Shown here: positions 11,700 through 63,893 of the stretch, one piece after another | Layout: each line of letters begins with the position of its first letter | Position numbering within the stretch: position 1 is the stretch's first letter | The notes under the pieces: generated by a model | What the model saw: only the letters and a program-made list of their open reading frames with translations | The model's database searches: none | What the model was told of the DNA's origin: nothing | Assembly: GCA_018402725.1 (NCBI GenBank) | Contig: JAGYII010000005.1 | Location: 11,308 to 75,307 of the forward strand | From: Candidatus Izemoplasma sp. | Lineage (GTDB): Bacteria > Bacillota_I > Bacilli_A > Izemoplasmatales > Izemoplasmataceae | DNA: 64,000 bases | Reading direction: 5' to 3' | Translations under genes and position numbers: made by a program

Positions 11700-11790
11700 G
11701 ATTTGCGGGTATCATAGTCCCTTTGTTTACGGTAAAGGGGTAGAGACAGCTAAACCGTATTTTTAGCCATATATGATACTAACCTACTTC
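11700..11790 (-). ncRNA. Purine riboswitch (G-box) with a guanine-type discriminator C, located in the pbuG leader.
   Basis: The minus strand reads GUAUCAUA-UAU-GGCUAAA-AAUACGG-UUUAGCU-GUCUCUACC-CCUUUA-CCGUAAAC-AAAGGG-AC-UAUGAUAC. This gives an 8-bp P1, P2 and P3 stems, L2 GG and L3 CC for the loop-loop contact, and the conserved J2-3 UCUACC and CCGUAAA. The AC in J3-1 matches the xpt-type riboswitch. Confidence 0.8.
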
Positions 11791-11826
11791 TATTAAATCA
11801 AAAAGAATGAAAAAAATCATCTATTT

Positions 11827-12477
11827 TCAGAAAATTTTTTCATTCTTTTTTAATTGACGGCCCCAGGCATAAAATATGGCCTGACTTAGAAGTAAAAAAA
11901 CTAAGATAATGAGCGCGCTAGTAAACCAAAAATTAGAGGGCAACAACTGAATCAAAACATCATCTGATCTTAGGATCCAATCATCATTTGAAAAGAATAA
12001 CTCATGAAAGCGAGTAAACACTCGGTTAAAATCAATCAACATCCATCCCCCGATAAAGAGGGTAAAAAATAAGGGAATGATAAACATCGTTTCTAGTGTT
12101 TTAGAAAACTCTTTTTTATTTATTTTAGATAGGTAAACCAATCCACCGATCGCGACTAAACCGGATAATCCTGCCACCACTCTTAACACGGTATAAAGAT
12201 TTTTAACATCCACCATGTGTCTGATTTCAATCTCACGCATTAAAGTGGATTCATCTAAAGCATTTGCCCCAAAGGTTAAATCATCGTTCCGGTAATTTAA
12301 ATAATCAATCAACTGATGGGCCACATAACGATGGTCATAGGTGATTTCTTGATGTAAGGCATAACGCCCTTCTGAAAGGCTCATATAAACCCGGCTTGTG
12401 AGGAGTTGTGCAAACGTCATCAATAGAAATACCAACATCAATAATTGAATCGAGATACGGATTAAATTACGCATCAT
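11827..12477 (-). CDS. Hypothetical integral membrane protein (possibly DUF1461-like). It overlaps the purB stop by 11 nt.
   Basis: A 216 aa ORF with about 4 TM segments and no catalytic motif. It is co-directional with and overlaps purB. Confidence 0.4.
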   Translation of the reverse strand: MMRNLIRISIQLLMLVFLLMTFAQLLTSRVYMSLSEGRYALHQEITYDHRYVAHQLIDYLNYRNDDLTFGANALDESTLMREIEIRHMVDVKNLYTVLRVVAGLSGLVAIGGLVYLSKINKKEFSKTLETMFIIPLFFTLFIGGWMLIDFNRVFTRFHELFFSNDDWILRSDDVLIQLLPSNFWFTSALIILVFLLLSQAIFYAWGRQLKKNEKIF

Positions 12478-47347: not shown

Positions 47348-48700
47348 TTATTTACCCAAACAGAATTGAGAGAATAAAGCATCAATAAGGGCTGTATCTG
47401 AAGTTTCTCCGATGATTTCACCGAGTGTTTCCCAGGCTCCTTTAATATCCATTTCAATCATGTCTACGGGAAAGGCTTGCTGGGCTGTTTCTAAGGCTTG
47501 ATTAATTTTAGTTAAGGCCTCATTGAGTTTTTGAACGTGCCGTGGATTAGATAGATAAAGATTTTGGTCGATTTTGATCATCCCATCTAAATAACGGGTA
47601 TGAATACTTTTTTCTAAGACATCAAGATTGGTTTTCTTTAAGACACTCATTGGAATAGCGTCTTCAAAAGGTTGACCCAGACGATTCGGCAGGTCATCTT
47701 TATTAAGGATGATGATGCGCTCTTTTTTTTCAGTGAGTGCTAAAAGGTCCTTATCCATAGACGTTAAAGGTTCAGACTGATCAAGAACTAATAAAACCAG
47801 TTCAGCTTCTTGGATGGCCTTTTTACTTTTTTCAATCCCAATTTTTTCAATAAAATCAGAGGTTTCCCTGATTCCTGCGGTATCAATTAAGTGAAGGGTA
47901 ATCCCGCCAATGTTGATAAATCCTTCAACGATGTCTCGAGTGGTTCCTTGTACTTCGGTCACAATGGCTTTTTCTTCGTTAATCAAAGCATTGAGTAAAC
48001 TTGATTTACCAACATTTGGACGTCCTACAATCGCTGTTTTAATTCCACTTCGAATGATTTGCCCATAGACGGCTTTATCCAGTATTTTTTCAATCTCTTG
48101 TTTTACTTTTGTCGCTTGTGGAATTAAAAATGAATGGGTCAATTCGGCTACATCATCATATTCAGGATAATCAATATTCACTTCAATTTGAGCAATGAGT
48201 TGAAGAAGATCATGCCTTAAATTTTCAATGAATGAACGAATTTTTCCACTTAAACCTTGGGTGGCTAATTTCAAAGACAATTCACTTCTAGATTCAATCA
48301 TATCCAAGACGCTTTCAGCTTCAGTTAAATCGATCCGGCCATTTAAAAAAGCACGTTCGGTAAATTCACCATTTTCCGCAGGTCGAGCGCCATTATTCAA
48401 ACATAAAGATAAAACTTTTTGAGCAATGTAATGCCCCCCGTGCGTATTAATTTCAACCATATCTTCTTTAGTGAATGTATTAGGGGCTTTAAAAAAACTG
48501 ACTAATACTTCATCAATAAGTTGGTCATCTTCATAAATTTTTCCGTACCGGATCGTATGAGATTTAAAAGGTCTTAAATTACTCGGTTTAAAAAATTTAT
48601 TTAGAATTTTTAAAGCCTCTTCACCACTCATCCGGACAATACTTATGGCCCCAATTCCAGGGGCTGTCGAGATGGCTGCAATGGTATCATTTTGCATCAT
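47348..48700 (-). CDS. mnmE: tRNA modification GTPase MnmE.
   Basis: An N-terminal THF-binding domain (AISTAPGIGAISIVRMSG), a G-domain (GRPNVGKSSLLN) and a C-terminal CLGK. The start is probably MMQNDTIA, though the ORF track extends to 48739. Confidence 0.92.
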   Translation of the reverse strand: MMQNDTIAAISTAPGIGAISIVRMSGEEALKILNKFFKPSNLRPFKSHTIRYGKIYEDDQLIDEVLVSFFKAPNTFTKEDMVEINTHGGHYIAQKVLSLCLNNGARPAENGEFTERAFLNGRIDLTEAESVLDMIESRSELSLKLATQGLSGKIRSFIENLRHDLLQLIAQIEVNIDYPEYDDVAELTHSFLIPQATKVKQEIEKILDKAVYGQIIRSGIKTAIVGRPNVGKSSLLNALINEEKAIVTEVQGTTRDIVEGFINIGGITLHLIDTAGIRETSDFIEKIGIEKSKKAIQEAELVLLVLDQSEPLTSMDKDLLALTEKKERIIILNKDDLPNRLGQPFEDAIPMSVLKKTNLDVLEKSIHTRYLDGMIKIDQNLYLSNPRHVQKLNEALTKINQALETAQQAFPVDMIEMDIKGAWETLGEIIGETSDTALIDALFSQFCLGK

Positions 48701-48765
48701 TATCACCTTATTCAGTATACCATAGGAGGCTTTTTTCATGGTATAATGTCACGTAGGAGACTCAA

Positions 48766-49254
48766 ATGGAAAAAGCAAGTTTAAAACGACAATTTATCTA
48801 TTATTTTGGAACCTTTATTATTGTGTTACTGGTAGTGATTGGGATTGCAATTTATAATCAAATAACGGTTGAAACTCCGTTCTTAGAATCCATGCAGCGG
48901 CTATGGTTTATGCCCATCTTAATTTTAGGCTTGCAGTTTGCCTATGAGTCTATTTTGGGGGCCCTAAGTAAAAAAGCAATGCCTAATAAAAGTGAAGAGG
49001 GCTACGTTCAACACATTTCCATGGTGGCTCGTCAACTGCTCAATTTAACCATGTCAGACTTTGAAGTTTTAAAAGATAATCAGGTTTTCCAACTTGCTTT
49101 AAGTGAAGCCTACCAACGATATAAAGCTAAAAATAAAAAAGAGTCAGACTACCAACTTTTCCTCGAATGGTTTGAAGAGGATACCCTTGAACACAACGTG
49201 GTCGAATTAACCATTAAAGAGACGTTATTTTTAATTAATAAAGAAGCAGAATAG
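48766..49254 (+). CDS. Hypothetical membrane-anchored protein (162 aa).
   Basis: An ORF with 2 N-terminal TM segments and a charged C-terminal domain. No family was recognised. Confidence 0.4.
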   Translation: MEKASLKRQFIYYFGTFIIVLLVVIGIAIYNQITVETPFLESMQRLWFMPILILGLQFAYESILGALSKKAMPNKSEEGYVQHISMVARQLLNLTMSDFEVLKDNQVFQLALSEAYQRYKAKNKKESDYQLFLEWFEEDTLEHNVVELTIKETLFLINKEAE

Positions 49255-49265
49255 AGAGGGTTTTT

Positions 49266-51257
49266 GTGAGCTATACGGCGCTTTACCGTAAATACCGTCC
49301 CTCTGATTTTAAAGAGGTAGCGGGCCAACAACATATTACGCAGACCTTTCAAAATGCGTTAAAACTCGATAAGCTTTCTCACGCTTATCTTTTTAGCGGT
49401 CCTCGAGGAACGGGAAAAACCAGTATTGCCAAAATCATTGCAAAAGCTGTCAACTGTGAAAAAGCTCCGACTGATAATCCCTGTAATGTATGTGAGATTT
49501 GTTTAGGCATTCAAAATAACACGATTAACGATGTTATCGAAATCGATGCGGCCAGTAATAATGGGGTCGATGAAATCCGTGAACTAAGAGACAAGGTTAA
49601 ATATCTTCCCTCTTTAGGACGTTATAAAGTGTATATCATTGACGAGGTCCACATGCTTTCAATTGGGGCCTTCAATGCCCTCCTTAAAACCTTAGAAGAA
49701 CCCCCTAAACATGTCATCTTTATTTTGGCTACCACCGAACCTCATAAAATTCCGGCAACAATTCATTCAAGATGTCAGCGTTTTGATTTCAGGGGTGTCA
49801 CGGAAAAAGAAATCAAAGGTCGTTTAGAGGAAATTGTCTCGCAAGAATCGATTCAAATTGAACCTGCCGCCTTGGATGTTATTACTCGTTCTGTAGATGG
49901 TGGAATGCGCGATGCAGTGAGTTTACTTGATCAAGCGTTAGCGTTCTCTGAAGGAGAAATCAAAGCCGCAGATGTTCATGCTATTCGGGGATCTGTTCAG
50001 GTGGAAGATATTTTCAACATGGCCATCGCTCTTCATGAAAATAACGTTCCCCTTGCTTTAGACCGTTTAGACACTCTTCTTGCTGAGGGAAAAGAAGCAA
50101 GAAGAATTGTGGATGATTTAATCATGTTTTATCGGGATGTCATGATTGACATCAATATCGATGCGATTCAAAGCCATCCTTTGCGGGATTTTGAGGCATA
50201 CCAAACGTGGTTAAAAACACAGACAAATCATGATATATTTTATGTCATTGATCTCCTTCATGAAGCTAAAAATCAGATGCGTTTTACGACTAACCCAAAA
50301 ATCGTAATCGAACTTTTGTTTATGAAATGGGGCGACCAAGTTCGTAAAGAACCGATGACTTTAATGAAAAAACAATCCGTGATGGAAAACGAGATTCAGC
50401 AGTTAAAAAAACAACTTGAAAATCTTTTAGATCGCCCTCTTGTTAAACCCAAATTCAGCGAAGAAGATAAACCTTTCACTCACGTAGAAGCCTTACCTGC
50501 AAGTGACTTAAGTCCGTCTGAAAAGAACGCCTTTAAACCGAAAGAAGAGCAGACTCCTTTTCCTTCTTTCGACAAACCACAGTTAGAAAAACCAGTTGAA
50601 TTTAAAGAAGAAATAATCACTCAAGAGCCGAAAGAATTTGAGCCTCAAGAGATTACGACTGATGAGATTCAACCAGAAGAAAAACCCCTTAAAAAAGAAG
50701 CTACGCAAGAACATCCTTTTAAAGATTTAGAAGACCGTTTCCTCAATAAAAAATATGGAACCTATGACATCAAGTTTGTAGAGGATGTTTTAAATACTGG
50801 GGGGCGTGAAGTTAGAATTGACATGGTCAAAAAGTGGTATGACATGGAAAGAACGAACTCGGGAGAATCATTAAAATACGCAAAACTTATTACCGAAGGA
50901 CAACTCGTCGCCACCAATGGAATCATGATCATTGTTACATATAAAACCGCCTCAACCTGCAACCGGATGATGAAGCCGGAAGTCTATGAAAAGATGGCTC
51001 AAGTCCTCAAAGATTTTTATCAACGTCCTATCCGTTTTTTAGCTCTTCCAGAAGAAACCTGGGAAATTATTTCTGATGAGTTTGTCAGACATTTCAGAGC
51101 CAAAAAAACCAATGATGAATGGATTACATTAAGTACAATTCAAAACACTAAACTAGTTAGTATCCCAGAGCGCGAAGAAACCTACGAAGACACCCGTTCT
51201 GGAGCCGAAAAAGAAGCAATTGATTTATTCGGTGAAGATATCGTCAAAATTAAGTAA
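49266..51257 (+). CDS. dnaX: DNA polymerase III subunits gamma/tau (GTG start).
   Basis: A 663 aa ORF with an AAA+ clamp-loader core (GPRGTGKTS, the SRC region DEVHML) and a Pro/Glu-rich linker. Confidence 0.93.
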   Translation: MSYTALYRKYRPSDFKEVAGQQHITQTFQNALKLDKLSHAYLFSGPRGTGKTSIAKIIAKAVNCEKAPTDNPCNVCEICLGIQNNTINDVIEIDAASNNGVDEIRELRDKVKYLPSLGRYKVYIIDEVHMLSIGAFNALLKTLEEPPKHVIFILATTEPHKIPATIHSRCQRFDFRGVTEKEIKGRLEEIVSQESIQIEPAALDVITRSVDGGMRDAVSLLDQALAFSEGEIKAADVHAIRGSVQVEDIFNMAIALHENNVPLALDRLDTLLAEGKEARRIVDDLIMFYRDVMIDINIDAIQSHPLRDFEAYQTWLKTQTNHDIFYVIDLLHEAKNQMRFTTNPKIVIELLFMKWGDQVRKEPMTLMKKQSVMENEIQQLKKQLENLLDRPLVKPKFSEEDKPFTHVEALPASDLSPSEKNAFKPKEEQTPFPSFDKPQLEKPVEFKEEIITQEPKEFEPQEITTDEIQPEEKPLKKEATQEHPFKDLEDRFLNKKYGTYDIKFVEDVLNTGGREVRIDMVKKWYDMERTNSGESLKYAKLITEGQLVATNGIMIIVTYKTASTCNRMMKPEVYEKMAQVLKDFYQRPIRFLALPEETWEIISDEFVRHFRAKKTNDEWITLSTIQNTKLVSIPEREETYEDTRSGAEKEAIDLFGEDIVKIK

Positions 51258-51263
51258 GAGGTT

Positions 51264-51581
51264 ATGATGAATTTAGCGATGATAAAAAAACTGGAACAAA
51301 TGCAAAAAGAAATGAAAGATGCTCAAGAACAATTGGAAGCATCTACCTTTTATGGTAAGTCTGGTGGAGGAGCAGTAGAAGTTGAATTCACCGGTGCTAA
51401 AAAGATGCAAAAAATTACGATAGATGAAGCCTCTTTTGACTTTCCAGGTGATCTAGATTTATTAAACGAAACCATTCTCGCAGCCGTCAATGATTGCATG
51501 CAAAAAATCGACGATGAAAACGATGAAAACCTCAAACAATTTTCCAATCAAATGGGCTCTTTTTCCGGGATACTAAAGTGA
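51264..51581 (+). CDS. ybaB: Nucleoid-associated protein YbaB/EbfC.
   Basis: A 105 aa ORF in the conserved position between dnaX and recR. Confidence 0.85.
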   Translation: MMNLAMIKKLEQMQKEMKDAQEQLEASTFYGKSGGGAVEVEFTGAKKMQKITIDEASFDFPGDLDLLNETILAAVNDCMQKIDDENDENLKQFSNQMGSFSGILK

Positions 51582-52177
51582 ACTACCCCAAAGCACTTGA
51601 AGCTTTAATTGAACATTTCAGAAAGTACCCGGGAGTTGGTCAAAAGACCGCTGAACGTTATGCTTTATTCACCTTAACGCATCGTGACCAAGTGGATGCA
51701 ATGGGATTTTCTGAAGCATTATCAAATCTTCACACATCAATTAAAACATGTGATTCGTGTGGATACTTTACGGAAAAAGAAACGTGTGATATTTGCGTCG
51801 ATTCAACGCGGAATCGTTCGCAAATTATGGTCGTTGAAGAAGCCAAAGATGTTTTAACCTTTGAAAAGGCTCATAGCTATCACGGGCTATATCACGTCTT
51901 AGGTGGGACCTTATCCCCTTCTGAAGGGATTGGACCAGAAGACCTGAATATTAAAAAATTAATTGAACGCTTGAAAGATAAAACCCATCAAGAACTTATT
52001 ATTGCAACGAATTTAAATGAAGCGGGTGAAACCACTGCTTTATATTTAAAGTATATTTTAAATGAGACAGGTATCTCACTAATGCGGATCGGGTATGGAC
52101 TTCCTGCGGGGGGAAATATTTCATACGCAGACGACATGACTTTGACTAAAGCTTTAGAGGGAAGAAGAAAGATGTAA
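51578..52177 (+). CDS. recR: Recombination protein RecR.
   Basis: A 199 aa ORF with a C4 zinc finger (CDSCGYF...CDIC) and a Toprim domain. Confidence 0.93.
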   Translation: MNYPKALEALIEHFRKYPGVGQKTAERYALFTLTHRDQVDAMGFSEALSNLHTSIKTCDSCGYFTEKETCDICVDSTRNRSQIMVVEEAKDVLTFEKAHSYHGLYHVLGGTLSPSEGIGPEDLNIKKLIERLKDKTHQELIIATNLNEAGETTALYLKYILNETGISLMRIGYGLPAGGNISYADDMTLTKALEGRRKM

Positions 52178-52336
52178 CTCTTACATTTTAGATGTAAAAA
52201 ATTTACATTTAGCCAAAAATCAAGTCATCAAGCGATGCACTGATTTTTGGTTAATTTTTTGAAGGATTTTTCCAAAAATTCAATGATTTTAAGTTATAAT
52301 ATAATGTTGATAAAGCAAGATTTAGGAGATAAAAAC

Positions 52337-53398
52337 TTGGAAATTAAAATTCAGAATTTAACCAAAGTTTTTACGAATAAAAAAATGACCGAAACCGTAG
52401 CAGTTGATCATCTTGATGTTACCATTCCATCAGGAAAATTGATTGGTCTTTTAGGCCCCTCTGGTTGCGGGAAGTCGACCACCTTATATATGATTTCTGG
52501 ATTATTAAAACCTACCGATGGCAAGATTTTTTTTGGCGATGAAGACGTGACTAACGTTCCGCCAGAAGATCGAGGCATCGGTTTAGTTTTTCAAAATTAT
52601 GCCTTATATCCTCACATGACCGTTCAACAAAATATTTTATTCCCATTAGAAAATCTTAAAGTTCCAAGACCTGAAGCAATGGAAAGAGCACAAAAAATTG
52701 CTGACCTTGTAGGTATTGGAGAGTTAATGAACCGTAAACCTGTGCAACTATCAGGGGGTCAACAACAACGTGTTGCTATCGCTAGAGCCTTAGTCAAAGA
52801 ACCCCGTGTTCTATTGTTAGATGAACCCTTATCAAACCTTGATGCTCGCTTACGTTTACAAACACGCGAAGAGATACGTAGAATTCAAAGAGAAACTGGA
52901 ATTACCACGATTTTTGTTACCCACGATCAAGAAGAAGCCATGTCTATTTCTGACGAAATTATCTTGATGGACTTTGGGGTTATGAAACAAAAAGGGGCTC
53001 CTCAAGAAGTGTATGATAATCCAACCAATTTATTCTCGGCCCGTTTTTTAGGAACGCCGCCGATAAATATCTTTAATGGTGAGATTTCTGCCGGTAAAAT
53101 TAAACTTGGAAAGTCGAACTTAGGAACCACCGATGTGAAAAGCCAAAACGTGGTAATTGGGATTCGTCCTGAAGGCTTTAAAGTCGATCCTAAGGGACCC
53201 CTTAAAGTCGAAGTAGAATTTGTGGAAACCATCGGTCGCGATACCACGCTTTTAATCATCGATCCAACGGACCCAACGAAACGTTTCCGTGGAATCATTG
53301 ATGCCGACTATAAAGTCGTAGCCGGCGATACGATTCAACTCTCCGTTAAACCGCACAAGATGTTTATATTTGATCCTGAAACGGGGGAAAAACTATAA
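52337..53398 (+). CDS. CUT1-family ABC importer ATPase (MsmX/MalK/UgpC-like with a C-terminal TOBE domain).
   Basis: Walker A GPSGCGKST, signature LSGGQQQR, Walker B and a C-terminal regulatory domain. The probable TTG start at 52337 sits behind AGGAGA. The ORF track extends to 52247. Confidence 0.85.
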   Translation: MEIKIQNLTKVFTNKKMTETVAVDHLDVTIPSGKLIGLLGPSGCGKSTTLYMISGLLKPTDGKIFFGDEDVTNVPPEDRGIGLVFQNYALYPHMTVQQNILFPLENLKVPRPEAMERAQKIADLVGIGELMNRKPVQLSGGQQQRVAIARALVKEPRVLLLDEPLSNLDARLRLQTREEIRRIQRETGITTIFVTHDQEEAMSISDEIILMDFGVMKQKGAPQEVYDNPTNLFSARFLGTPPINIFNGEISAGKIKLGKSNLGTTDVKSQNVVIGIRPEGFKVDPKGPLKVEVEFVETIGRDTTLLIIDPTDPTKRFRGIIDADYKVVAGDTIQLSVKPHKMFIFDPETGEKL

Positions 53399-54325
53399 AT
53401 GTTAGAAGATAAAAGTAATATTAAAGCCTGGCTTTATTTAGCTCCTGCGCTTATTTTATTGACCATATTTATCTTTTACCCCATTATTAATGCATTATTT
53501 TTAGTGATTTTAAGTGACTATAATTATCTCCAAGGAACGTGGCAAGGATTTACGTTAACTGATAACTTTGTATATGTATTTAGAAACCAAAATTTTATCC
53601 AAGCATTGACTAACACCATGTTAATAACGTTTGTATCGGTACCTGTTTCAGTTACTCTTTCACTGTTTGTCTCGGTGTGGCTGAATTCAGTGGCTAAATC
53701 TAAAGGCTTTTTCCAAACCATCTTTTTCTTACCTTATGTCACCAATGCGATTGCGATTGGGATGGCTTTTGCTTTTTTATTCAACCGAAACTTTGGCCTT
53801 ATCAATACCATCTTAGGGTGGGTCGGATTAAACCCTGTAAACTGGGTTGGACTCGGCGCAACTTGGGGGAACGCGATGTTTAGCTTACTCGTGTATGTGG
53901 TATGGGGATCGCTTGCGTTCAAAATTATGGTGTTTTTAAGTGGACTCCAAAATATCGATAAACAATATTATGATGCAGCTCGTGTTGATTCTACTAAAAA
54001 GGGACGCATCTTTAGACGGATTACCGTCCCCCTCTTATCACCGATGATTTTTTACATCACCATCACTTCGTTTATTGGTGCCTTTAAAGCGTACACCGAA
54101 GTGATTGGAATGTTTGGCGAACGATTAGGTCCCCCTGGAAATGATAAAGCGCTGATTACCGTGGTGGCTCTTGTCTATGATGCCTTAGACCGATCTGGGG
54201 TGCCTGGTGCTTTATCAGAAGCCGCGGCCACGGCCATTGTATTATTTGCAATTACCTTGATTTTTACATTAATTAACACGCGAATTTCAAAGAATCGTGT
54301 ACATTATGCAGGGGGGGCAAAATAA
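53399..54325 (+). CDS. ABC transporter permease (UgpA/MalF-type).
   Basis: A 308 aa ORF with 6 TM segments and the EAA loop region. Confidence 0.8.
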   Translation: MLEDKSNIKAWLYLAPALILLTIFIFYPIINALFLVILSDYNYLQGTWQGFTLTDNFVYVFRNQNFIQALTNTMLITFVSVPVSVTLSLFVSVWLNSVAKSKGFFQTIFFLPYVTNAIAIGMAFAFLFNRNFGLINTILGWVGLNPVNWVGLGATWGNAMFSLLVYVVWGSLAFKIMVFLSGLQNIDKQYYDAARVDSTKKGRIFRRITVPLLSPMIFYITITSFIGAFKAYTEVIGMFGERLGPPGNDKALITVVALVYDALDRSGVPGALSEAAATAIVLFAITLIFTLINTRISKNRVHYAGGAK

Positions 54326-55218
54326 TGGCCGCTCAGGTGCAAAACTTATACGGAAACGAGAAACAATTAAGACGCCAATTCATTCTGCGTCAAACGTATG
54401 TTTTTACGATGTTGATTATATTCTCAATCATCGTCATCATTCCTTTTTACTGGATGATATTAACAGCGTTTAAAACCGAAGCTCAAGTATTTACCTCTCC
54501 ACCCATCCTATGGTTAACCGAACTCAACTTTAGTAATTTTGGGGCCGCCATGAATGCAGCGCCGTTCTTAAGATATATGGGAAATACCGTCGTCGTCTCG
54601 TTTTTTTCAACGATCGGAACGGTGATAACAACAATCTTTGCAGCTTTTGCGTTTGCGAGACTTAACTTCACAGGTCGTGATGCGATCTTCATGTTACTCA
54701 TTTCAACGATGATGATTCCCGGAGAAATATTCGTCATTACCAACTTCTTAACGGTGGTTGAATTTGGCTGGATTAAAGATCAAACCTATACTACCGCTTT
54801 ACTTGCTATGACGATTCCTTTTATGACCAGTATCTTTTACATCTTCTTCTTAAGACAAAGTTTCAGACAAATTCCAAACGAGCTTTACTATGCGGCTAAA
54901 GTCGATGGTACAAGTGACTTCAAATATCTAAGAAGAGTGATGATTCCGATTGCGATGCCGACCATCATTACCATTACTATTTTGAACGCTATGGGAACCT
55001 GGAACGCCTATATTTGGCCAAGATTGGTCACCCAGCGTCAAGAATTTGGACTGGTGTCTAACGGGTTAAGAAATGCTTTTAACGACTTGGCTGGCGTGGT
55101 CGCTTATAACGAACAAATGGCCGCGGCACTCCTGGTGACGTTCCCGCTCTTAGTCGTGTTTTTACTTCTAAAAAAATATATTATCCGCGGGGTTTCCCGC
55201 AGTGGAATAAAAGGTTAA
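54325..55218 (+). CDS. ABC transporter permease (UgpE/MalG-type).
   Basis: A 297 aa ORF with 6 TM segments and an EAA motif (YYAAKVDGTSDFKYLRRVMIP). Confidence 0.8.
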   Translation: MAAQVQNLYGNEKQLRRQFILRQTYVFTMLIIFSIIVIIPFYWMILTAFKTEAQVFTSPPILWLTELNFSNFGAAMNAAPFLRYMGNTVVVSFFSTIGTVITTIFAAFAFARLNFTGRDAIFMLLISTMMIPGEIFVITNFLTVVEFGWIKDQTYTTALLAMTIPFMTSIFYIFFLRQSFRQIPNELYYAAKVDGTSDFKYLRRVMIPIAMPTIITITILNAMGTWNAYIWPRLVTQRQEFGLVSNGLRNAFNDLAGVVAYNEQMAAALLVTFPLLVVFLLLKKYIIRGVSRSGIKG

Positions 55219-55243
55219 AAAAAACTTTAGGAGGATACCTATT

Positions 55244-56610
55244 ATGAAAAAAGTATTAAGTTTTATCGCAGCCCTTGCGATGGTGCTGAGCTTATCGGCG
55301 TGTTTAGCCGGAGGAGGCCGGGAAGAAGCGGTTGTCGACATCCCAAATGAACTCCCCAATGTACCCATAGAAATCGTGATGTGGCATGCGTTTGGCCAGG
55401 CCAATCAAGATTTACTCCAGGAAATGTTTGACAGTTTCCGTTTGATTTACCCTCAAGTCACGATCATTCAAGTGAGTCAAGGAGGCTATGATGGTCTTCG
55501 TGAATCCACGATGCAAGGGATCGTTTCAGGTATTACCCCAGTTATTGTCATGGGTTACCCAGATCATTTTGTAGAGTATTTAAATGGGAATGCTTTAGTC
55601 CCTTTAGATGAGTACATCAATCACCCAGAACACGGGATTGATCTAGAAGATTTCGTCCAAGGGTTCTTAGAAGAAAACCGTCAGTATCTGGACGGTAAAC
55701 AATATTCATTACCCTTTGCGAAATCAGCCGAGATGATCGTTTACAACAAAGACTGGTTTGATACACAAGAGTATTACATATCAGAACCATTCCATTAACA
55801 TGGGCGGAACTTGAAGAGTCCTTGCAGAGACCATGGTGGGTTCAGGACCTAACCAATGTGATTTCTTATTTAACGCGGACTCTCGGCTAACTTCTTTATT
55901 AATTCAACCCGTCAATGGGATGCAGGGTATACCAATGAAGGACAAATCCTCATCGACAACCCTCAAACCAGAGAAATGTTGTCTTACTTTGAAGATTTGT
56001 TTGAACGTGATGTTGTGGCCTTCCCGATTGAATGGGAAGAAAATTACAGATCGATTCCTTTTAAACAAGGAAAAGTGTGTATGTCCCAAGGCTCTACCGC
56101 CGGAACGCGTCATAACGTACCTGGTGCTGATGATGCCTTTACGAATATTGGCATAATTCCTGTCATTCAAAAGGCTTAGACAATCAACACGCGATGCAAC
56201 AAGGACCCAATGTTGCGATCATTTCGAATGCCGATGACAACCAACGTTTGGTATGGCTCTTATTAAAACACATGACTTCGACTGAAAACACGGCTGATTT
56301 TGCGATGGCTACGGGCTACGTTCGGTCGTATTTCAGGTTTGAAACGCCCGAATATCAAACGTTCTTACAACTCGTTAACCGTCATGAAGCGGGTGAAACC
56401 TTAACCCCACAGAACAGTTCAGTTACCCTTCTCAATGGCGGCTAATGTTGCTTTTACGCAAGTGAACGTATCGTTTGACAGCGCCTTTGTCGGACGTGTG
56501 ACTTCATCAGGGGCAAGACGTGAAGCGGGCCTTGCCTTTGAAGCCGATATGCAGGAACTAGAACCGTTGAAAGAAGCCATTAACAGAATGTTAAACCAGC
56601 TCAGACAATA
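55244..56610 (+). pseudogene. Decayed ABC substrate-binding lipoprotein with at least 5 frame disruptions.
   Basis: An intact lipoprotein signal (LSLSACLAGGG) and about 185 aa of SBP-like sequence end at the TAA stop at 55796-55798. SBP-like segments then continue in other frames (TWAELEESLQ..., GYTNEGQILIDNPQTREMLSYFEDLF..., MSQGSTAG..., and the C-terminal ...EADMQELEPLKEAINRMLNQLRQ), broken by stops. Confidence 0.8.
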
Positions 56611-56644
56611 ATCTAGTTAGGATGATTTTAAATGAAAAACGTTC

Positions 56645-57410
56645 ATGATTTTGATGTTCATCCTGATGACTTTTGCCCTGACAGCCTGTCAAGAGACCCC
56701 TGCAGTCGAAGAAGGGCCCACCGTCATTAGTTATCCAGTGGACAGAAGCCTTGACCTCAAGCGGTTGAATATGAAAATCGTGAGTTCTTTAGAAGATGGA
56801 ATTGGGAAGTCACCCTCGACCGGTGTGTCGATGGGGATACGACCTTCTTCCAATCAGGGACCAGTCGCCCCTTCAGTGTTCGCTATATTGGGATTGATAC
56901 CCGTGAGTCCACGACTCGTGTGGATGCGTGGGGGATGCCTGCAAGTTTATTTGTTTGTGAGATTTAGAAGGAGCTACCACGATCGTCTTAGGAGCGAGAC
57001 AGAGGCCGTTGGCAGCAAAGATAACTTCAGTAGCAGGCTTGCTTATGTATGGGTGGATGGCATCCTAATTAATCTACGCTTAGTGGAAAGCTTTACACCC
57101 CGCGGTGGGTGCTGGGGTCTTGAAATACAGCGATGCCTTTTAAGAGCTCAACAACACGCGATGAGTACTGGACGACATTTTGGGGTGAAACCGATCCGAG
57201 CTTTGACGGTGAGCCTTTAAGTATTAATACGATGGAAGAACTCTTTGAGAATAAAGAATTGTATGTCAATCAGTTTCTTAAATATCACAGGCGTGGTGAC
57301 CGAAGTTTCAGGCGCAACAGATTCAGGATCAATGGGGGCGAGGATATTCTTGTCTATGCAGAAATCAAATTCCTGCGACCATAGCCGATGGTTTATACCC
57401 GGAAAAACTT
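56645..57410 (+). pseudogene. Staphylococcal-nuclease (SNase)-like lipoprotein remnant.
   Basis: The lipoprotein signal MILMFILMTFALTAC is in frame A. The catalytic-core motifs VTLDRCVDGDTTFF...VRYIGIDTRE...WGMPAS lie in frame +1 and end in a stop. The C-terminal RLAYVWVDGILINLRLVESF is back in frame A. The catalytic IDTPE is mutated to IDTRE. Confidence 0.7.
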
Positions 57411-57509
57411 TAAAGGCAACAATATTTATAACGAATTTTAACAACCAATGGCAACTCACTAATTTTATTATCAGAGCGTCGAGTTCCTAGGTGTATCCAG
57501 GAGGAAAAA

Positions 57510-60116
57510 ATGAAAAAGTTATTTTTGGCCATGTTAATGGTCATGGGTTTTAATGACTCTCTCGCGACCTGTGGTGGCGAGACTGACAGACCCGTAAATG
57601 AAGGAATCAAACGTTGGTTATTAACGCGAGAGATTCGTTGATTATCCAGTTTAGACAGGGTGGTAGGAAACTTGAATCCTACCTACAGAGTCATGTGGAA
57701 CTACCGTTGTGGAAGCATCATCTAATCAGTCATTTCTAACACTGGGGCTATTTACACGTCAGAAGTAGGAGAAAAGTAATGCAGTGGTAACCGAATTGGC
57801 TTGACCGTTTCCTTTGAATGAAGCAACGGCGACAAGAACCTTTGAAGCTCTTGTTATTGCTCAAGAACCATCCTAACTCGTTTTACAGAATGGCCTGCTC
57901 TTTATGAGGCTTCAAATTATTAATGATCTTATAACCATTGAAGTTGTCTCCAACGTCTTTGACGGCGGATTCTTTGTTTTTGATGGCGCTTATCATCTAG
58001 GTGTTTACATTGGATCAGGCGGAACAGGCGTAGTCACTGTGGGTGATGAAGTGAGAGTCACCGGAACTTATGCCCGTTACTATACGCTACCAACTAGATA
58101 CCATTGAAGAGACCGTTATTTTATCGCAAGGAAATGAAATCCCGACGTTCAGTAACACCGATCATCGAATTTCAATGACTTAGATTTGGAAGACCTCACT
58201 TGTTCATGGGCAATTCTATGAATTGACCGGGACCCTTGTTCAAAAGGAAATAATAGCAACTTATATTTAGAGTAGGAATTCAGACAGAAAGTGCTTGGTG
58301 TACTACTATTCAGATGCGGCTTCGTTAGAAGTAGCAATCCGTTGTGGCAGAACCATTACGATTACGCCCACACTATACCCTTCACAGCACCAACGGAGTG
58401 ATGATGTCATTCCGCGGTGATGGGGATGATGTTCATTTGTTGCTGAATTATCAGAAAACTCAAAATTAGAGCTTGATAAAAACGTATTATTAGGAACTCG
58501 TTTCTTAACGTTTGGCGACGCGATTACCTTACCAGACTGGGGTAAACGGGACCGTATTTAGTAATTGGGCTTCAGTGATGCTACGCTCGTAGGAAATGAC
58601 AGGGCCTATGTTGCGACGCCTGAAACGCCAACTAACGTTACATTCACCGTGACCGCAACTAATGGAGGAAATCTCCGAAGAATTAACAGTAACAGTTCAT
58701 TCATTGGCGGAAATTTCCATTGAAGATGCTTTAAAAGTAGCTCCGGGTGGGTTTATTTATGTTCACTGGTAAAGTCGTTGAGATTATTGCTAGAAACAGT
58801 GGTTTTTATGTCTATGATGGTACCGGTCTTATTTACGTAAGAGATACCGCTTTCTGGGGTGAAAACAATTGAATCTGTCGTCATTGGAATTCTTGGACCT
58901 TTGTCGGTGCAAGAGGCTTATTCCGCGGGTTGCCTCAAGTTGAAGCATTGAGGATTGAGTGGAAACTTCAACTGAAACCTTGCGGACGATCCTTTACTTG
59001 GATTCACACCCTTGAGATATTAGAAAATGGAAACATCATTCCGGGTGGACGTTGCTCAATTTGTGGAACAGCCACCATTGTTGAAGGCCATTCACGGATT
59101 ACCGTGTTCGAAGCAGGAGCTCCTTCACGTTCAACTTCACCATAACGCAAATAACAATGCGATTGCAGACTTTGCGGGTCAAGAAATTCTCATTTGAAGT
59201 GCGCCCCTTCCAATGGGATAGTGAAGCCCCATTTGTAAGCATATACTAAGACCGCTGAAGACGTCAGCGTGAACCTAACTTAAGCTCAAAAGATGAGTTA
59301 GCAGTGGTCACCGCTGCGACGAACGCAAACGTATTTAGAACGGTCAGAGAAAACTTAACATTAGCCACTGCTGGATTATTTGATAGCACTGTTAGCTATT
59401 CATCCAGCAACACCAATGTCGTAGCGAATGATGGAACGGTGACTTTTGGAGCTGAAGCAACCGAAGTGACCTTAACCATTACCGTCGGAAGTTTCTCAAA
59501 AGCATACGTTCTCAACGTGGCTCAAGCTTCTTTAAATGTTAAAGAAGCCATCGAAATTGAAAATGGAGAAGACGTCTTGGTGCGTGGGGTGGTCGTTAGT
59601 ATCGATCCTCATACCAACGGATTCTTTATCCAAGATGCAGACGGGGCCGGTATCTATGTAGGTAATTTTGGAACAGACGATCTTAAATCAAAAGTAAAAG
59701 TAGGAGATTTAGTCTGGGTCTCAGGAGTCAGAGATACCTTTGCCCGCTTTGGTAATAACCAAAACCAAGTATGGACGGCAAGCTTAGTTGAAGTGGTTCG
59801 TTCAGGCGTTGAAGTCTTTGTCTTTGAAGGATTTACAGTGGATCAAATTATTACTGATTATCCAACCAGTGATTCTAAACGTTTCATCGTAGAAGATGTC
59901 ACTATTGATTTTTATGATAACTTTAGCCATGTATTCTTAACGAATTCAGATGATGCTCTAGAAATCCAAATCAAGTTTGACATCCGCCAGGTGGCGGCAG
60001 GATGGGATCCTGAAGATTATCCAGAAGGAACTGTCTTAACCTTAGCTTTCACCACTCAACGGATCGACTTTGACAATTACCGTGTGGTCGATGTCGTCAT
60101 TATCACCGAAGAGTAA
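57510..60116 (+). pseudogene. Remnant of a large multi-domain surface lipoprotein with repeated OB-fold (tRNA_anti-like) and bacterial Ig-like domains. Only the last 270 codons (59304-60116) remain as an ORF.
   Basis: A lipoprotein start (MKKLFLAMLMVMGFNDSLATCGG, RBS AGGAGG) is followed by multiple stops. OB-fold-like blocks in broken frames include FFVFDGAYHLGVYIGSGGTGVVTVGDEVRVTGTYARYYTLP, GGFIYVHW/KVVEIIARNSGFYVYDGTGLIYVRD and GFFIQDADGAGIYVGNFGTDDLKSKVKVGDLVWVSG. Ig-like blocks include TFTVTATNGG and ...VTFGAEATEVTLTITVGSF. A strong terminator follows at 60124-60152. Confidence 0.65.
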
Positions 60117-60195
60117 TCAACAAAAAGGGGCCACTCAGTGGTCCCTTTTTTAAACAGACTCATTGTGGTATGATGGTGTGTTAAAGAGGTGAACG

Positions 60196-61116
60196 ATGTT
60201 TAAAAAAGCGATTATAATTCTCATTCTTTTAACCATTTCAGGCTGTCAATCAAGCGAGTTTAGACTCCCGGATTTAGAAGGTAAAACACGCTCTGAAATT
60301 GAGCTCATTTTCAGTGAGATAGAATTAGATATCGATTTTATCGAACGTACCTTTGTGATTGAAAATCAGTCTAATCTCTTTATTGAATACGGCATGTTTT
60401 TAAATAGTGGTGATATCCTTGAACCCGGATCATATGTACCCATTATTGTCAGTGCTAGTTTAATTGATGACTCAATTTACTTTGTTCCACAGTCCATTCC
60501 TTATGATGGTCCCCGTTTAGATCAGCAATTTTTTGAGCTTGAATTAGCCATTCGAAATGAGACCTCGGTTCGAGGGGTTGGAGGCGCTTTTTATGTAGAA
60601 CTCCAATCGGATGGATGTGTCGATGGAGATACCGCAAAGTTCATCGTCCCAGAAGCCATGGTTACTTTTACGAACAACCCCTATGTCAGAAGTCGCTTTT
60701 TAAATTTTGATACCCCTGAGACATTCTCAGGAGGCGAACAAGAATTTGGTCAACCCGCTTCTCAATACGCATGTGAGCTTTTGATGAACGCTTCTCAAAT
60801 TGTTCTTCAAACCGATCCAGGGGATAATTTATTTGATCGCTATGGTCGTCTTCTCGCCTGGATTTGGATTCAAAACGGGGATGAACCTTTTGAGCTATTA
60901 AACTACATGATGGTAAGACAAGGACTTGGCGTGGTGAGATACTTATTTGGAGCCGGTGAAACCAATGTCACGGTATTTGATGGTTTAACGTATACAGAGT
61001 GGATGTTCCTTGCTGAAGATAGAGCCGTCAAAGATCAACTGGGTCGCCATGGAGACTTCTTAGATTATTATTGGGACTATGATAAAGACGCCCCTAATCC
61101 TTATACATGGCCTTAG
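60196..61116 (+). CDS. Intact SNase-like (thermonuclease family) lipoprotein.
   Basis: A 306 aa ORF with the lipobox LLTISGC and SNase motifs (CVDGDTAKF, FLNFDTPE, YGRLLAWIW...MVRQGLG). Confidence 0.8.
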   Translation: MFKKAIIILILLTISGCQSSEFRLPDLEGKTRSEIELIFSEIELDIDFIERTFVIENQSNLFIEYGMFLNSGDILEPGSYVPIIVSASLIDDSIYFVPQSIPYDGPRLDQQFFELELAIRNETSVRGVGGAFYVELQSDGCVDGDTAKFIVPEAMVTFTNNPYVRSRFLNFDTPETFSGGEQEFGQPASQYACELLMNASQIVLQTDPGDNLFDRYGRLLAWIWIQNGDEPFELLNYMMVRQGLGVVRYLFGAGETNVTVFDGLTYTEWMFLAEDRAVKDQLGRHGDFLDYYWDYDKDAPNPYTWP

Positions 61117-61125
61117 GAGAAAATC

Positions 61126-62067
61126 ATGATTAAAACGATTCAAGAAAAGATTGAAGCCTATTCAACCATTTTGATATTCAGGCATTTAGAAGCCGATTAT
61201 GATGCCCTTGGATCTCAACTCGGCTTAAAAGCTTTAATCCAAGAAAACTACCCGGGCAAACAAGTCCTTGCTTTAGGTCAAGATAATCAATTTGATAGCC
61301 TAGGTAAGATGGATCACCTTCAAGAATTTGAGGGAGATAAGACTTTAGCGATCGTGGTGGATGTCGCTCAAACGCACCGTATTGATGACGAGCGATTCTT
61401 AAAGTGTCAGGAAATTATCGTGATTGATCATCATCAGAATGACAGTGATTGTGCAACGCTATTTTGGCAAGATAAAAAAGCCATTGCCGCCGCTGAAATG
61501 ATTACACATCTTGCAATAAAATTAAACTGGAAATTCAACTCCCAAAGCGCCAAAGCCCTTATGATGGGCCTTGTTTCTGATAGTGGTCGATTCTTATTTA
61601 AAGGAACTCGTGTAGAGTCATTTGAGGCTGCAGCAACCCTATTAAACCAAGGCCTTGATTTGGATGAAATCTATCAGTCCATGTATACAGAAAATATTGA
61701 AATGAAGCGATTAAGAGGCTATGGACTGAGTACATTTACGCTTTTAGATTCAGGCGTCGCTTATTTAAGAAATGCACCAGACATCAAACGTCGTTTTAAT
61801 GTATCAGAGTTTTCAGTGAGCCGTGGATTAGTCAGCGTCATGGGGCAAATAAAAGGGGTTCATGCCTGGGTTAACTTTACTGAAACCGATGAAGGAGAAA
61901 TCCTCGCAGAGATCAGAAGTGCCAGCGTCCCTCTAGATGATGTCGCTAAAAGTTATGGAGGTGGCGGCCATCAACTCGCCTGCGGATGTACATTACATAG
62001 TTGGCCCCAAACGCAAGAACTCATCAACGCCATTGAAAAGAAAGTAGGCACTCATGACCTTAAATGA
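61126..62067 (+). CDS. nrnA: DHH-DHHA1 phosphoesterase NrnA (nanoRNase / pAp phosphatase).
   Basis: A 313 aa ORF with DHH motifs I-III (HLEADYDALGS, VVDVA, DHH) and the DHHA1 GGGGH motif. Confidence 0.8.
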   Translation: MIKTIQEKIEAYSTILIFRHLEADYDALGSQLGLKALIQENYPGKQVLALGQDNQFDSLGKMDHLQEFEGDKTLAIVVDVAQTHRIDDERFLKCQEIIVIDHHQNDSDCATLFWQDKKAIAAAEMITHLAIKLNWKFNSQSAKALMMGLVSDSGRFLFKGTRVESFEAAATLLNQGLDLDEIYQSMYTENIEMKRLRGYGLSTFTLLDSGVAYLRNAPDIKRRFNVSEFSVSRGLVSVMGQIKGVHAWVNFTETDEGEILAEIRSASVPLDDVAKSYGGGGHQLACGCTLHSWPQTQELINAIEKKVGTHDLK

Positions 62068-63017
62068 AAAGTACCAACAAATGTATGAAAAGATTAAAGC
62101 CTATAAAAAGATTATCATTACCCCTCACGCTAGGCCCGATGGTGACTGTTTAGGCAGCGCCCTCGGTTTAAAAGATATCATCCAAAATACGTTTAAAGAG
62201 AAAGAAGTCTATGTCAGCGGGGAATCTACCGGCTACTTAGAATTTTTAGGAGCCCTGGATACCTTAGAGGATGACGTTTTAAAAACGCTTTTAGTCATTG
62301 CGATTGTTACAGCAAAGACCGAATTGCGGAGAAAGATTTGACCAAGGCGTATTTAATTAAGTGGATCATCACATTTTAGTCGATTCCTTTGGGGATTTAC
62401 GAAAGTGTGGATGAATCCTCCCCCTGCCGCTGCTCAAATGGTGGTTGATTTTATTTGGCAGACCAAGACAGCGAAATGAGTCCTCAAGGGGCTTTGGCTT
62501 TATATACAGGGATTCTTACAGATACGGGGCGGTTTAAATACGATGGAGTATCTGCTAAGACTTCAAAGCCGTCGCAGAACTTTATGAACAAGGACTCGAT
62601 CCAAGTATCACCCATAAAGCACTCGATATCATGAGTGAAGAATTGATTCGTTTTAAGGGCTATGTTTTACTCAACATGAAAAAGACCGTAAATGGTGTGG
62701 TCTATATCAAAATCACCGACGAACTTCGTCAAGAATTTAAAGTTACCACCGAAGAAGCTTCAAGCTTAGTTAATGAACTCGGGCATTTTGAAGATTGTCC
62801 GATTTGGGTCTTGATGGCTGAGTACGAAGAAAAGATTGTTAGAGCGAGAATTAGGAGTAAAGGACCCACTATTTCTACCACCGCCAACTTGTTTGATGGC
62901 GGCGGTCATGCCAAAGCATCAGGCGCTAATTTAGGAACTTGGGATAAAGCGGAAGAACTTCTCAAAGCCCTTGATGGTGTTGCTAAAGAATATAAAGAAA
63001 ATCAAAAAGAGGCATAA
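62054..63017 (+). pseudogene. Second nrnA-like DHH-DHHA1 gene split across three frames.
   Basis: Motif I (HARPDGDCLGSALGL) is in frame 2 at 62054-62341. The DHH-domain segment ALALYTGILTDTGRFKY is in frame 1 at about 62491-62640. The DHHA1 C-terminus (DGGGHAKASG) is in frame 0 at 62631-63017. A terminator follows at 63008-63032. Confidence 0.7.
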
Positions 63018-63148
63018 GCCTCTTTTTTTTATGTAAAGATTAGGTTAAGTTTATTAATTGCTTGGTAAGAATCTCTTGATAAGATAGTCGCTATGTTAAA
63101 ATAATGACGGTTATATTTGAATGATATTTAGATTTATTAAGGAGCTTT

Positions 63149-63814
63149 ATGGCAAAGATTCTTGTCATCGAAGATGAAAAAAGCATCCAACAAATGATTG
63201 AGTATGATTTATCTCAAATCGGTTATGAAGTCGATGTTGCGAGTGATGGTTTAACGGGATATCAAAAAGCGTTAAAAGATTCTTATGACATCATTGTGCT
63301 TGATTTAATGCTTCCAGGCATGAAAGGCTTAGATGTTGCAAAGAAACTCAAAGAAGCAAAAATCAAGTCTTATATCATTATGTTAACAGCTATGGATGAA
63401 GAATTTCAAAAGATTGAAGGCTTCGAAAAAGGGGCCGATGATTATATGACTAAACCCTTTTCACCGAGAGAATTATCAGCCAGAATCAAAGCGGTTTTAA
63501 GAAGAGAAAAAGCTTCTGAAAAAATGGAAGAAATTGAATATGAAAATATTCATTTAAACGTATTAAGTTACGAAGCATCTTTTGAAGGGAAGCCCCTTAA
63601 TCTAACCCTGAAAGAATTTGAACTTCTCGCTTATTTATTAAATAACCGTGGACTTGTTCTTTCTAGAGACCAGTTATTAAAGTCACTGTGGGGCTATGCC
63701 TATGATGGGGATACCCGTGTGGTCGATGTTCATATATTTAAGATTCGTGAAAAGATTGATCCTCAAGCTAAACTCATCAAAACCGTAAGAGGGATTGGGT
63801 ACAAACTCATTTAA
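63149..63814 (+). CDS. OmpR/PhoB-family two-component response regulator.
   Basis: A 221 aa ORF with a receiver domain (phospho-acceptor Asp in VLDLMLPG) and a winged-helix C-terminus. Confidence 0.85.
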   Translation: MAKILVIEDEKSIQQMIEYDLSQIGYEVDVASDGLTGYQKALKDSYDIIVLDLMLPGMKGLDVAKKLKEAKIKSYIIMLTAMDEEFQKIEGFEKGADDYMTKPFSPRELSARIKAVLRREKASEKMEEIEYENIHLNVLSYEASFEGKPLNLTLKEFELLAYLLNNRGLVLSRDQLLKSLWGYAYDGDTRVVDVHIFKIREKIDPQAKLIKTVRGIGYKLI

Positions 63815-63893
63815 CAATAAGTTAACAAGACTTCAATCATAAATAAATATTAAATTTATATGATTAATTAAAAAATGATTGAGGAGAATTAAA

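Follow-up and report, generated by a model that had tools for sequence, protein, structure and literature searches.

What is the cluster of transporter, nuclease and phosphoesterase genes at 52.3–63.0 kb of this 64,000-nucleotide stretch of Candidatus Izemoplasma sp. DNA, what does its importer carry, and do the broken reading frames inside it mean that the system is being lost? The whole stretch is referred to here as the window. The original prediction had seen in it a coherent but partly decayed system for the scavenging and uptake of nucleic acids, a theme known from mollicutes. We find a single conserved co-directional cluster in a wall-less, mollicute-like bacterium, in line with the scavenging part of that description. 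The best explanation of the whole, in which we place considerable confidence, is that the operon is the DNA-degradation locus of the Izemoplasmatales, working by a scavenging mechanism, and that the frame breaks are errors in the sequence. The operon comprises the following elements (SBP, substrate-binding protein; SNase, staphylococcal nuclease-like protein).

52337–53398, + strand: ATPase of the ATP-binding cassette (ABC) importer, UgpC/MalK-like (CUT1 type), with Pfam ABC_tran at E 2e-37 and a weak OB_MalK match; intact
53399–54325, + strand: ABC permease 1, UgpA-like, with Pfam BPD_transp_1 and a best NCBIfam match to UgpA below cut-off; intact
54325–55218, + strand: ABC permease 2, UgpE-like, with Pfam BPD_transp_1 and a best NCBIfam match to UgpE below cut-off; intact
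55244–56611, + strand: SBP_bac_1/8 lipoprotein (the SBP), lipobox LSAC, 460 aa in relatives; at least four frame fragments, with the frame lost from 55770 on
about 56633–57490 (approximate), + strand: SNase lipoprotein 1 (SNase1), lipobox LTAC, 291 aa in relatives; frame-broken fragments
57510–60116, + strand: 874-codon aBig_2/OB-fold surface lipoprotein; frame broken up to 59288, final 270 codons (59304–60116) clean
60196–61116, + strand: SNase lipoprotein 2 (SNase2), 306 aa, lipobox ISGC, Pfam SNase; intact
61126–62067, + strand: NrnA-like DHH/DHHA1 phosphoesterase 1 (DHH1), 313 aa, Pfam DHH and DHHA1; intact
62054–63017, + strand: NrnA-like DHH/DHHA1 phosphoesterase 2 (DHH2), 324 aa in relatives; three fragments, frame broken within 62285–62562 only
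63004–63027, + strand: intrinsic-terminator-like hairpin, a 10-bp stem followed by a T run, overlapping the DHH2 stop codon

All genes that the original prediction listed for the locus lie at the coordinates it gave, all on the + strand and never more than about 80 bp apart. They form a single co-directional operon, about 10.7 kb long, from about 52300 to the terminator at 63004–63027; this hairpin is the likely end of the operon. The ATPase gene has a TTG start preceded by an AGGAGA ribosome-binding site, and some gene callers place the start at ATG 52283. One gene boundary had to be redrawn. The open reading frame (ORF) 59304–60116, which had been taken for a separate intact gene, is the C-terminal third of the 874-codon gene, whereas its description as an OB-fold protein is borne out by Pfam and AlphaFold.

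To place the operon among its relatives, we scanned one genome per GTDB species, which gave 52 confirmed loci from the Izemoplasmatales, the Haloplasmataceae and related wall-less Bacilli; the closest of these species-representative loci is only 59% identical, so that the window's own species, an uncultured member of the Izemoplasmatales, is absent from the representatives. Reference proteins mapped onto the loci reveal a conserved gene order. The upstream half reads (dnaX-ybaB-recR)-ATPase-permease-permease-SBP-SNase, with one or two SNase copies, and the downstream half continues with large aBig/OB protein-SNase-DHH-DHH-response regulator-PstSCAB, with a Na/Pi symporter inserted before the regulator in more distant loci. 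Among loci with enough sequence, a tandem DHH pair lies downstream of the SNase gene in 37 of 47, an aBig/OB protein lies upstream of it in 24 of 30, and an SBP together with a permease lies upstream in 19 of 23; PstS is within reach of SNase in 18 of 39 loci. The co-occurrence of SNase and nrnA genes in other genomes, on which the original prediction had staked its reading, is thereby found, and the neighbours of the SBP in relatives are nucleases, not genes of sugar metabolism. With this gene order found again in dozens of species, chance falls far short of explaining the co-location. Where the order is lacking, the SNase gene is apparently an additional copy that lies away from the conserved locus, and for at least three of the exceptional SNase loci the same genome also yielded a syntenic one. 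The loci of Ca. Izemoplasma acidinucleici MAG-BB-5 (L051) and Izimaplasma HR2 (L045) have a gene order identical to that of the window, and homologues of SNase2 come nearly all from metagenome-assembled genomes of Candidatus Izemoplasmatales or Izimaplasma.

The window operon is the Izemoplasmatales "DNA-degradation locus" that has already been published. Wasmund et al. (2021, Nat Microbiol, Fig. 6; PMC8289736) described "conspicuous genomic loci" in Izemoplasmataceae and UBA5603, in which SBP homologues also neighbour nucleases, and proposed a nucleoside or nucleobase transporter from the gene neighbourhoods. A like cluster in the cultured Xianfuyuplasma coldseepsis zrk13 is DNA-induced (Zheng et al. 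2021; PMC8397711). For Hujiaoplasma nucleasis zrk29, NrnA, RecR and ABC transporters are listed in the locus together with an extracellular ribonuclease and a nucleoid-associated protein, and DNA plus RNA induces many of the genes in it (Zheng et al. 2023, mBio; PMC10470597). With the published loci the window copy shares at least two surface nuclease genes (here SNase1 and SNase2), an ABC transporter with its own SBP in the cluster (here 52337–56611), further nucleases or phosphohydrolases (here the DHH pair) and an adjoining Pst phosphate transporter with its regulator, all within the same bacterial order; the flank of recR and a nucleoid-associated protein gene, as in H. nucleasis, is also found in the window. 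Since the locus has been described in these three papers, and a tandem DHH pair in a fourth (PMC7373297), the statement that this is not a described operon type was wrong. The locus type, its distribution in the Izemoplasmatales and its induction by DNA or RNA are already published, and the system is a known one.

The window copy nevertheless differs from the published genomes of the order, its proteins being only 40–60% identical to theirs, and it carries indel patches that the published loci do not have. The large surface protein also differs. That of Wasmund et al. has 1,049 aa, whereas in the protein here, which has 874 aa, only aBig_2 and OB folds are recognised, and no nuclease or lamin-tail (LTD) domain was detected in the 874-aa orthologue, unlike the published protein. 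This difference is variation in one component and not a different system.

The mycoplasma SBP(P80)-SNase-ABC operon (M. agalactiae MAG_5030-5070, M. hyopneumoniae mhp379 and M. pneumoniae MPN133-136; PMC3585158) is a further relative, likened here by its description. Its transcript joins the gene of a surface SNase lipoprotein to those of a sugar/Ugp-type ABC ATPase, of two permeases and of an SBP-like lipoprotein, and import of nucleic-acid precursors has been proposed (PMC3585158). The link between an SNase lipoprotein and a Ugp-type ABC system is thus common to both, but the mycoplasma order is SBP-SNase-ATPase-permeases, as opposed to ATPase-permeases-SBP-SNase here, and the description in PMC3585158 makes no mention of an OB-fold capture protein, a second SNase or adjoining Pst/Pho genes. 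The SBP shows a weak NCBIfam match to the mycoplasma P68 family lipoprotein.

Both surface nucleases are recognised by Pfam SNase (PF00565; cut-off 21): SNase2 scores 39 bits, and so does the intact SNase1 orthologue L001:372-1247, which also has an NCBIfam thermonuclease NucI-like match. Across 23 homologues no variation is seen at SNase2 residues D143, D145, T146, R167, D172, E175 and R218, and conservation of T173 is at least 90%. We take these residues to be the counterparts of the Ca-binding and catalytic residues D21, D40, T41, R35, E43 and R87 of staphylococcal nuclease. On this alignment SNase2 appears to retain both the metal-binding and the catalytic residues of that enzyme and is a predicted nuclease. 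The short-read contig L007 covers the SNase2 gene at 100% identity. When inspected by eye, the C-terminal extension of SNase1 (about 100 aa) is OB-fold-like; the N-terminal domain of SNase2 is PASTA-like, and PF03793 is annotated in some of its homologues.

The 874-codon gene has intact orthologues of 867–874 aa (P0121–P0126). In the 874-aa orthologue P0121, we find three aBig_2 domains (Pfam E 6e-40), each followed by OB-fold pairs. Its AlphaFold model has a pLDDT of 88.9, and the best fold matches outside the Ig fold are HIN-200, ribosomal protein S1, RPA and CST, all of which are tandem OB-fold nucleic-acid binders; the TM-scores of these matches are low because the protein is multi-domain. 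More distant homologues carry the Pfam domains tRNA_anti, tRNA_anti_2, BOF and lamin-tail (PF00932). The assignment as an OB-fold protein is well supported at the level of the fold, and the model suggests that the protein may bind nucleic acid. Repeated modules are seen in P0121 at residues of about 30–320, 320–600 and 600–874, and the last 270 aa align to residues 330–470 and 43–93 at 31–45% identity. We also considered membership of the ExeM/NucH family and rejected it (NCBIfam 21.5 bits, against a cut-off of 300).

In B. subtilis YhcR and Shewanella ExeM/NucH, OB-fold modules are combined with a surface-attached nuclease for the use of extracellular DNA. The window system resembles these proteins in bringing together OB-fold binding modules and surface nuclease domains, but in the window the two kinds of module are carried by different lipoproteins.

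DHH1 reaches 227 bits with the NCBIfam NrnA model and the intact DHH2 orthologue L001:5825-6799 reaches 235 bits. Because both are under the equivalog cut-off of 350, we refer to the two proteins as NrnA-like. Their best PDB matches are entries named NrnA (5j21 for DHH1), with E 4e-52. The DHH and GGGH motifs are present in the translations, and the pair shares these motifs and the DHH and DHHA1 domains with B. subtilis NrnA, a bifunctional oligoribonuclease/pAp phosphatase, from which it is set apart by its scores. Two DHH paralogues in tandem are likewise found in M. bovis (Mbov_0327/0328; PMC7373297).

The importer is a CUT1-type ABC system composed of a MalK/UgpC-type ATPase, two BPD_transp_1 permeases and an SBP_bac_1/8 protein; permease 1 is 87% identical to its orthologues in L009–L012. 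All four components find their best NCBIfam scores with Ugp models, but every one of them stays under the equivalog cut-off (UgpC 350 bits against 432, UgpA 100 against 335, UgpE 116 against 297 and UgpB 57 against 411), and we have rejected an assignment as the UgpBAEC sn-glycerol-3-phosphate transporter. The SBP has intact 460-aa orthologues in L091, L087, L095 and L096 (Pfam SBP_bac_8 E 9e-30), and we used the one from L091 (P0208) for the comparisons. By sequence, its best relative in the PDB is a T. thermophilus dinucleotide-binding protein (PDB 7C0F and related entries; E 6e-17). The same Thermus protein is the best match by fold (Foldseek E 1.6e-25, TM 0.71/0.82, model pLDDT 91.6), and according to the PDB entry it was crystallised with endogenous uridylyl-3'-5'-phospho-guanosine (UpG). 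In the ranking it is followed by UgpB, with maltose and oligosaccharide binders well behind. The Thermus protein is reportedly the dinucleotide-binding protein of an ABC transporter that Chandravanshi et al. described in FEBS J in 2021. The original prediction had made the choice between a nucleoside or oligonucleotide binder and a sugar binder depend on repair of the SBP frame, and the repaired SBP is not sugar-specific.

The titles of the PDB entries name eight mutated residues of the Thermus protein, which we presume from these titles to contact the ligand. In a HMMER alignment, Y56, F79, N81, S127, Y224, T240, Y246 and Q274 of the Thermus protein correspond to Y82, Y105, D107, S161, Y269, S285, Y/H291 and Q321 of the SBP family, respectively. 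Five of the eight are identical in the SBP and three are conservatively replaced. Among 32 family members six of the positions are invariant, and the other two, Y82 and Y269, vary to F only. The SBP differs from the Thermus protein in being lipoprotein-anchored and in having extra C-terminal helices.

As the SBP is closest to a dinucleotide-binding SBP, its cargo would most likely be dinucleotides or other small phosphodiester products. At the level of sequence and fold, the result does not fit a sugar importer and fits the import of small phosphodiester products. We tentatively propose that the importer is dedicated to the uptake of dinucleotides and short oligonucleotides, as opposed to nucleosides or sugars, and that the NrnA-like pair provides an obligatory finishing step in the cytoplasm. 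Several points weigh against this proposal. The overall identity between the SBP and the Thermus protein is only about 20%, although at this level the conservation of the eight residues, compared with the Thermus protein alone, would be a notable enrichment. In addition, UgpB, a glycerophosphodiester binder, is the next-best match, and by analogy with Mbov_0327/0328 the DHH pair could be purely housekeeping (turnover of nanoRNA and c-di-AMP).

The strongest rival is that the cargo consists of nucleosides or nucleobases, taken up once extracellular dephosphorylation has produced them, which is the proposal of Wasmund et al. from gene neighbourhoods (PMC8289736), or else of glycerophosphodiesters or glycerol-3-phosphate in the manner of UgpB, with the DHH pair a mere housekeeping neighbour (nanoRNA, pAp, c-di-AMP). 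This we consider rather unlikely. The best scores of all four components with Ugp models and the position of UgpB structures as second-best fold matches speak for it, but the Ugp matches are far under their cut-offs, that of the SBP most of all, and the dinucleotide-binding protein ranks above UgpB both by sequence and by fold, with the eight presumed ligand residues conserved. NrnA is a housekeeping nanoRNase of Firmicutes and Mollicutes. In agreement with a housekeeping role, the tandem DHH pair of M. bovis acts on cyclic dinucleotides and nanoRNA (PMC7373297). On the other hand, the DHH pair is kept beside the SNase gene across the order at the frequency given above, and NrnA is itself listed in the H. 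nucleasis locus, many genes of which are DNA/RNA-induced (PMC10470597).

Through the link between the SBP and the dinucleotide-binding protein, the published guess (a nucleoside or nucleobase transporter) can be narrowed to a specific hypothesis, in which dinucleotides are imported and the NrnA-like pair acts on them. In mycoplasmas, too, an SNase lipoprotein goes with a related ABC system, and for this reason the dinucleotide route, if it exists, could by analogy be an ancestral way of acquiring nucleotides in wall-less Bacilli. The hypothesis matters for nucleotide acquisition in wall-less bacteria, mycoplasmas among them, and for the turnover of DNA in sediments.

For the operon as a whole, we envisage the following mechanism. 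The 874-aa aBig_2/OB-fold lipoprotein, judged by its fold, would hold DNA or RNA from the surroundings on the surface of this wall-less organism, where SNase1 and SNase2, as membrane-anchored lipoproteins, would cut it. The products of SNase chemistry are 3'-phospho mono-, di- and short oligonucleotides. The Ugp/CUT1-type importer would take up the small products, most likely dinucleotides or small phosphodiesters, and the two cytoplasmic NrnA-like enzymes, if they act as their family suggests, would finish the degradation to mononucleotides and remove 3'-phosphates. The adjoining PhoB-like regulator and Pst/PhoU/kinase genes may then handle the released phosphate, as their adjacency suggests. 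The scheme builds on gene content, gene order, lipoprotein signals, catalytic residues and fold relations, all of them observed, and on the nucleic-acid induction published for relatives.

Four genes of the operon (those of the SBP, SNase1, the 874-codon protein and DHH2) are broken, and the broken ORFs are true features of the window sequence. To this extent the description as partly decayed stands; as a statement about biological decay it does not, as the breaks are confined to two bounded patches that ignore gene limits, and relatives are intact:

55770–59290: indel patch 1, which starts within the SBP gene and ends within the 874-codon gene
62283–62565: indel patch 2, wholly within the DHH2 gene, with 12 indel events in 280 bp

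In our judgement the patches are very probably an artefact of assembly or consensus, that is, two local stretches of uncorrected long-read-like error. The argument is based on the sub-genic patchiness of the damage, on the indel spectrum and on the intact relatives. BLAST alignments open 126 gaps against L002 and 119 against L001, MAFFT yields 82 events, and the indels measure 1–6 bp. All but about three of the BLAST gap openings fall inside the two patches, where the density is about one indel per 30–45 bp, and alignments to close relatives show zero indels in 59.3–62.28 kb. The patches start and stop within genes, and the decay is a property of DNA segments and not of genes. No indel falls in the opening 526 bp of the SBP gene, in the final 810 bp of the 874-codon gene or in about 700 bp of the DHH2 gene, and in these parts substitutions are mostly at third codon positions, the pattern of purifying selection. 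Recoding of TGA as Trp was rejected as the cause: the breaks are changes of frame, and the surrounding genes are intact under translation table 11, as are all large ORFs elsewhere in the window.

The substitutions are less telling. When codon positions were first compared with a single relative, selection in the patches did not seem relaxed, but this comparison is superseded by a finer test on a four-way alignment, in which window-private substitutions at codon positions 1, 2 and 3 number 73, 72 and 88 inside the patches and 12, 10 and 52 outside. About 150 extra position-blind substitutions accompany the indels of the patches, and the excess is transition-biased (about 2:1). Because the excess is flat over codon positions, substitutions alone cannot separate error from neutral decay. 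The small indels have a character of their own. Deletions outnumber insertions, 1-bp deletions lie in homopolymers of four or more bases in 27% of cases, compared with 5.8% (a 4–8-fold enrichment), 15 of 21 1-bp insertions duplicate the neighbouring base, and compensating changes of homopolymer run length are visible in the patches. These homopolymer, duplication and transition biases fit the behaviour of a polymerase or a base-caller.

Every relative with a flank identity from 90% to about 98% has intact genes. In L001–L006 (94% SNase2 identity), L087, L095 and L096 all genes of the locus are intact, and in L091, with a flank about 98% identical to the window, the SBP gene is intact. Five independent short-read contigs of the same species (L088, L090, L097, L098 and L007) match the window at 99.4–100% identity with zero gaps. 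They cover either 47688–55296, where they end at 55050–55296 and thus up to about 700 bp before patch 1, or 59991–61267, between the patches. Contigs from SRR14300309 are 99.8–100% identical and those from the SRR313263xx runs 99.4% identical. Exact-protein look-ups with SNase2, the two permeases and the regulator found same-species contigs, none of which enters the patches, and a look-up with DHH1 found none; an exact-pattern scan of JGI metagenome contigs gave 0 matches to the window allele and likewise 0 to the intact allele. The region seems to be hard to assemble from short reads, probably because its surface-protein genes vary between strains. On the simplest reading, a strain-variable stretch, left unassembled by short reads, was bridged or left unpolished with an error-rich consensus of long-read type. 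The organism probably carries the whole system intact. In a separate comparison with L091, the 5' end of the SBP gene (55250–55500) has 18 mismatches and no indels in an otherwise about 98.4% identical flank; this divergence may reflect strain-level recombination or a hypervariable lipoprotein N-terminus.

The case for an artefact is inferential, as same-strain reads or contigs do not span the patches. Further points weigh against it: the flat and transition-biased substitutions of the patches also fit neutral evolution on a terminal branch, and the deletion and homopolymer biases of the small indels are common to real decay and long-read error. Real pseudogenisation, with the SBP and the OB-fold protein gone from the lineage along with one SNase and one DHH paralogue, would account for the frame disruption, for the near-equal private substitutions over codon positions and their transition bias, and, by natural slippage, for the excess of deletions and the preference of 1-bp indels for homopolymers. 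However, a dead gene is expected to decay along its whole length and to gain some larger deletions. Here, the decay is patchy within single genes, the unaffected parts of which keep the pattern of purifying selection; there are about 0.5–0.85 indels to each excess substitution, and none of the 82–126 events exceeds 6 bp. Such a ratio and such a ceiling on size are unlike natural bacterial pseudogenes. Together with the uniformly intact relatives, one of them about 98% identical in the flank, and the same-species short-read contigs that break off just before patch 1, this makes loss of the genes improbable. Uniform random corruption of the sequence, synthetic or in data handling, would explain the sharp on/off boundaries unrelated to genes and the similar event density in both patches, but the enrichment of 1-bp deletions in homopolymers, the insertions that copy a neighbouring base and the transition bias are not expected from uniform random edits, and we judge it highly improbable.

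To read the locus as partly decayed would wrongly imply that DNA foraging has been lost in this lineage. An uncorrected long-read-like consensus, by contrast, is a local problem of assembly quality, to be fixed before the genome is annotated or its pseudogenes are counted.

Beyond the terminator, the operon adjoins a phosphate cluster:

63149–63814, + strand: PhoB/PnpR-like response regulator, first gene of the adjoining phosphate cluster
63811–63827, + strand: TTAACA-ATAAG-TTAACA direct repeat (TTAACA-N5-TTAACA), PhoP/PhoB-box-like, immediately upstream of the pstS start

The last features of the window are the PhoB-like regulator and the beginning of pstS; in L095, a close relative, the downstream cluster is complete and consists of response regulator-PstS-PstC-PstA-PstB-PhoU-PnpS/PhoR-like kinase. 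The repeat at 63811–63827 is the sole perfect TTHACA-N5-TTHACA match in the window and is conserved in L001; as a PhoP/PhoB box it is suggestive, the total number of matches in the window being not above chance. A scan of the window found no PhoP-box-like repeat upstream of the ABC operon, which counts against the phosphate link in the proposed mechanism; common Pho control of the two clusters is therefore unsupported beyond their adjacency. In more distant relatives, a Na/Pi symporter fused to a PhoU-like domain lies between DHH2 and the response regulator, whereas none is found at this place in the window or in close relatives. The fusion genes are as follows:

L015:12949-14652: Na/Pi symporter-PhoU fusion
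L016:12950-14689: Na/Pi symporter-PhoU fusion
L028:12998-14683: Na/Pi symporter-PhoU fusion
L051:12944-14677: Na/Pi symporter-PhoU fusion
L013:3109-4806: Na/Pi symporter-PhoU fusion

The original prediction had also called the organism dependent on purine salvage, citing purA, purB and a riboswitch-controlled guanine permease and the lack of a de novo pur operon. An Rfam scan of the window returned the purine riboswitch at 11.7 kb only, with no RNA element within the locus. The riboswitch and purB are present, purA was not located in the window, and dependence on salvage does not follow, as one 64-kb window cannot show the absence of a de novo pur operon. The features concerned are:

10270–11649, − strand: 459-aa ORF, presumably the permease, with no NCBIfam match at E 1e-10
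11695–11796, − strand: purine riboswitch (Rfam, 76 bits), preceding the permease-sized ORF
12467–13768, − strand: purB, just upstream of the riboswitch and ORF

Genes for formate-tetrahydrofolate ligase (16114–17784) and serine hydroxymethyltransferase (8369–9580) lie near these purine genes.

At the upstream edge of the operon, directly after the recR stop codon (52178–52215), we observed an inverted repeat, TTACAT-TTTAG-ATGTAA, followed by TTTACATTTAG, which is kept in L087. At the same site after recR, L009–L012 carry TT(A/T)ACAAAACTT. The repeat at 52178–52215 could be either the terminator of recR or an operator of the ABC operon.

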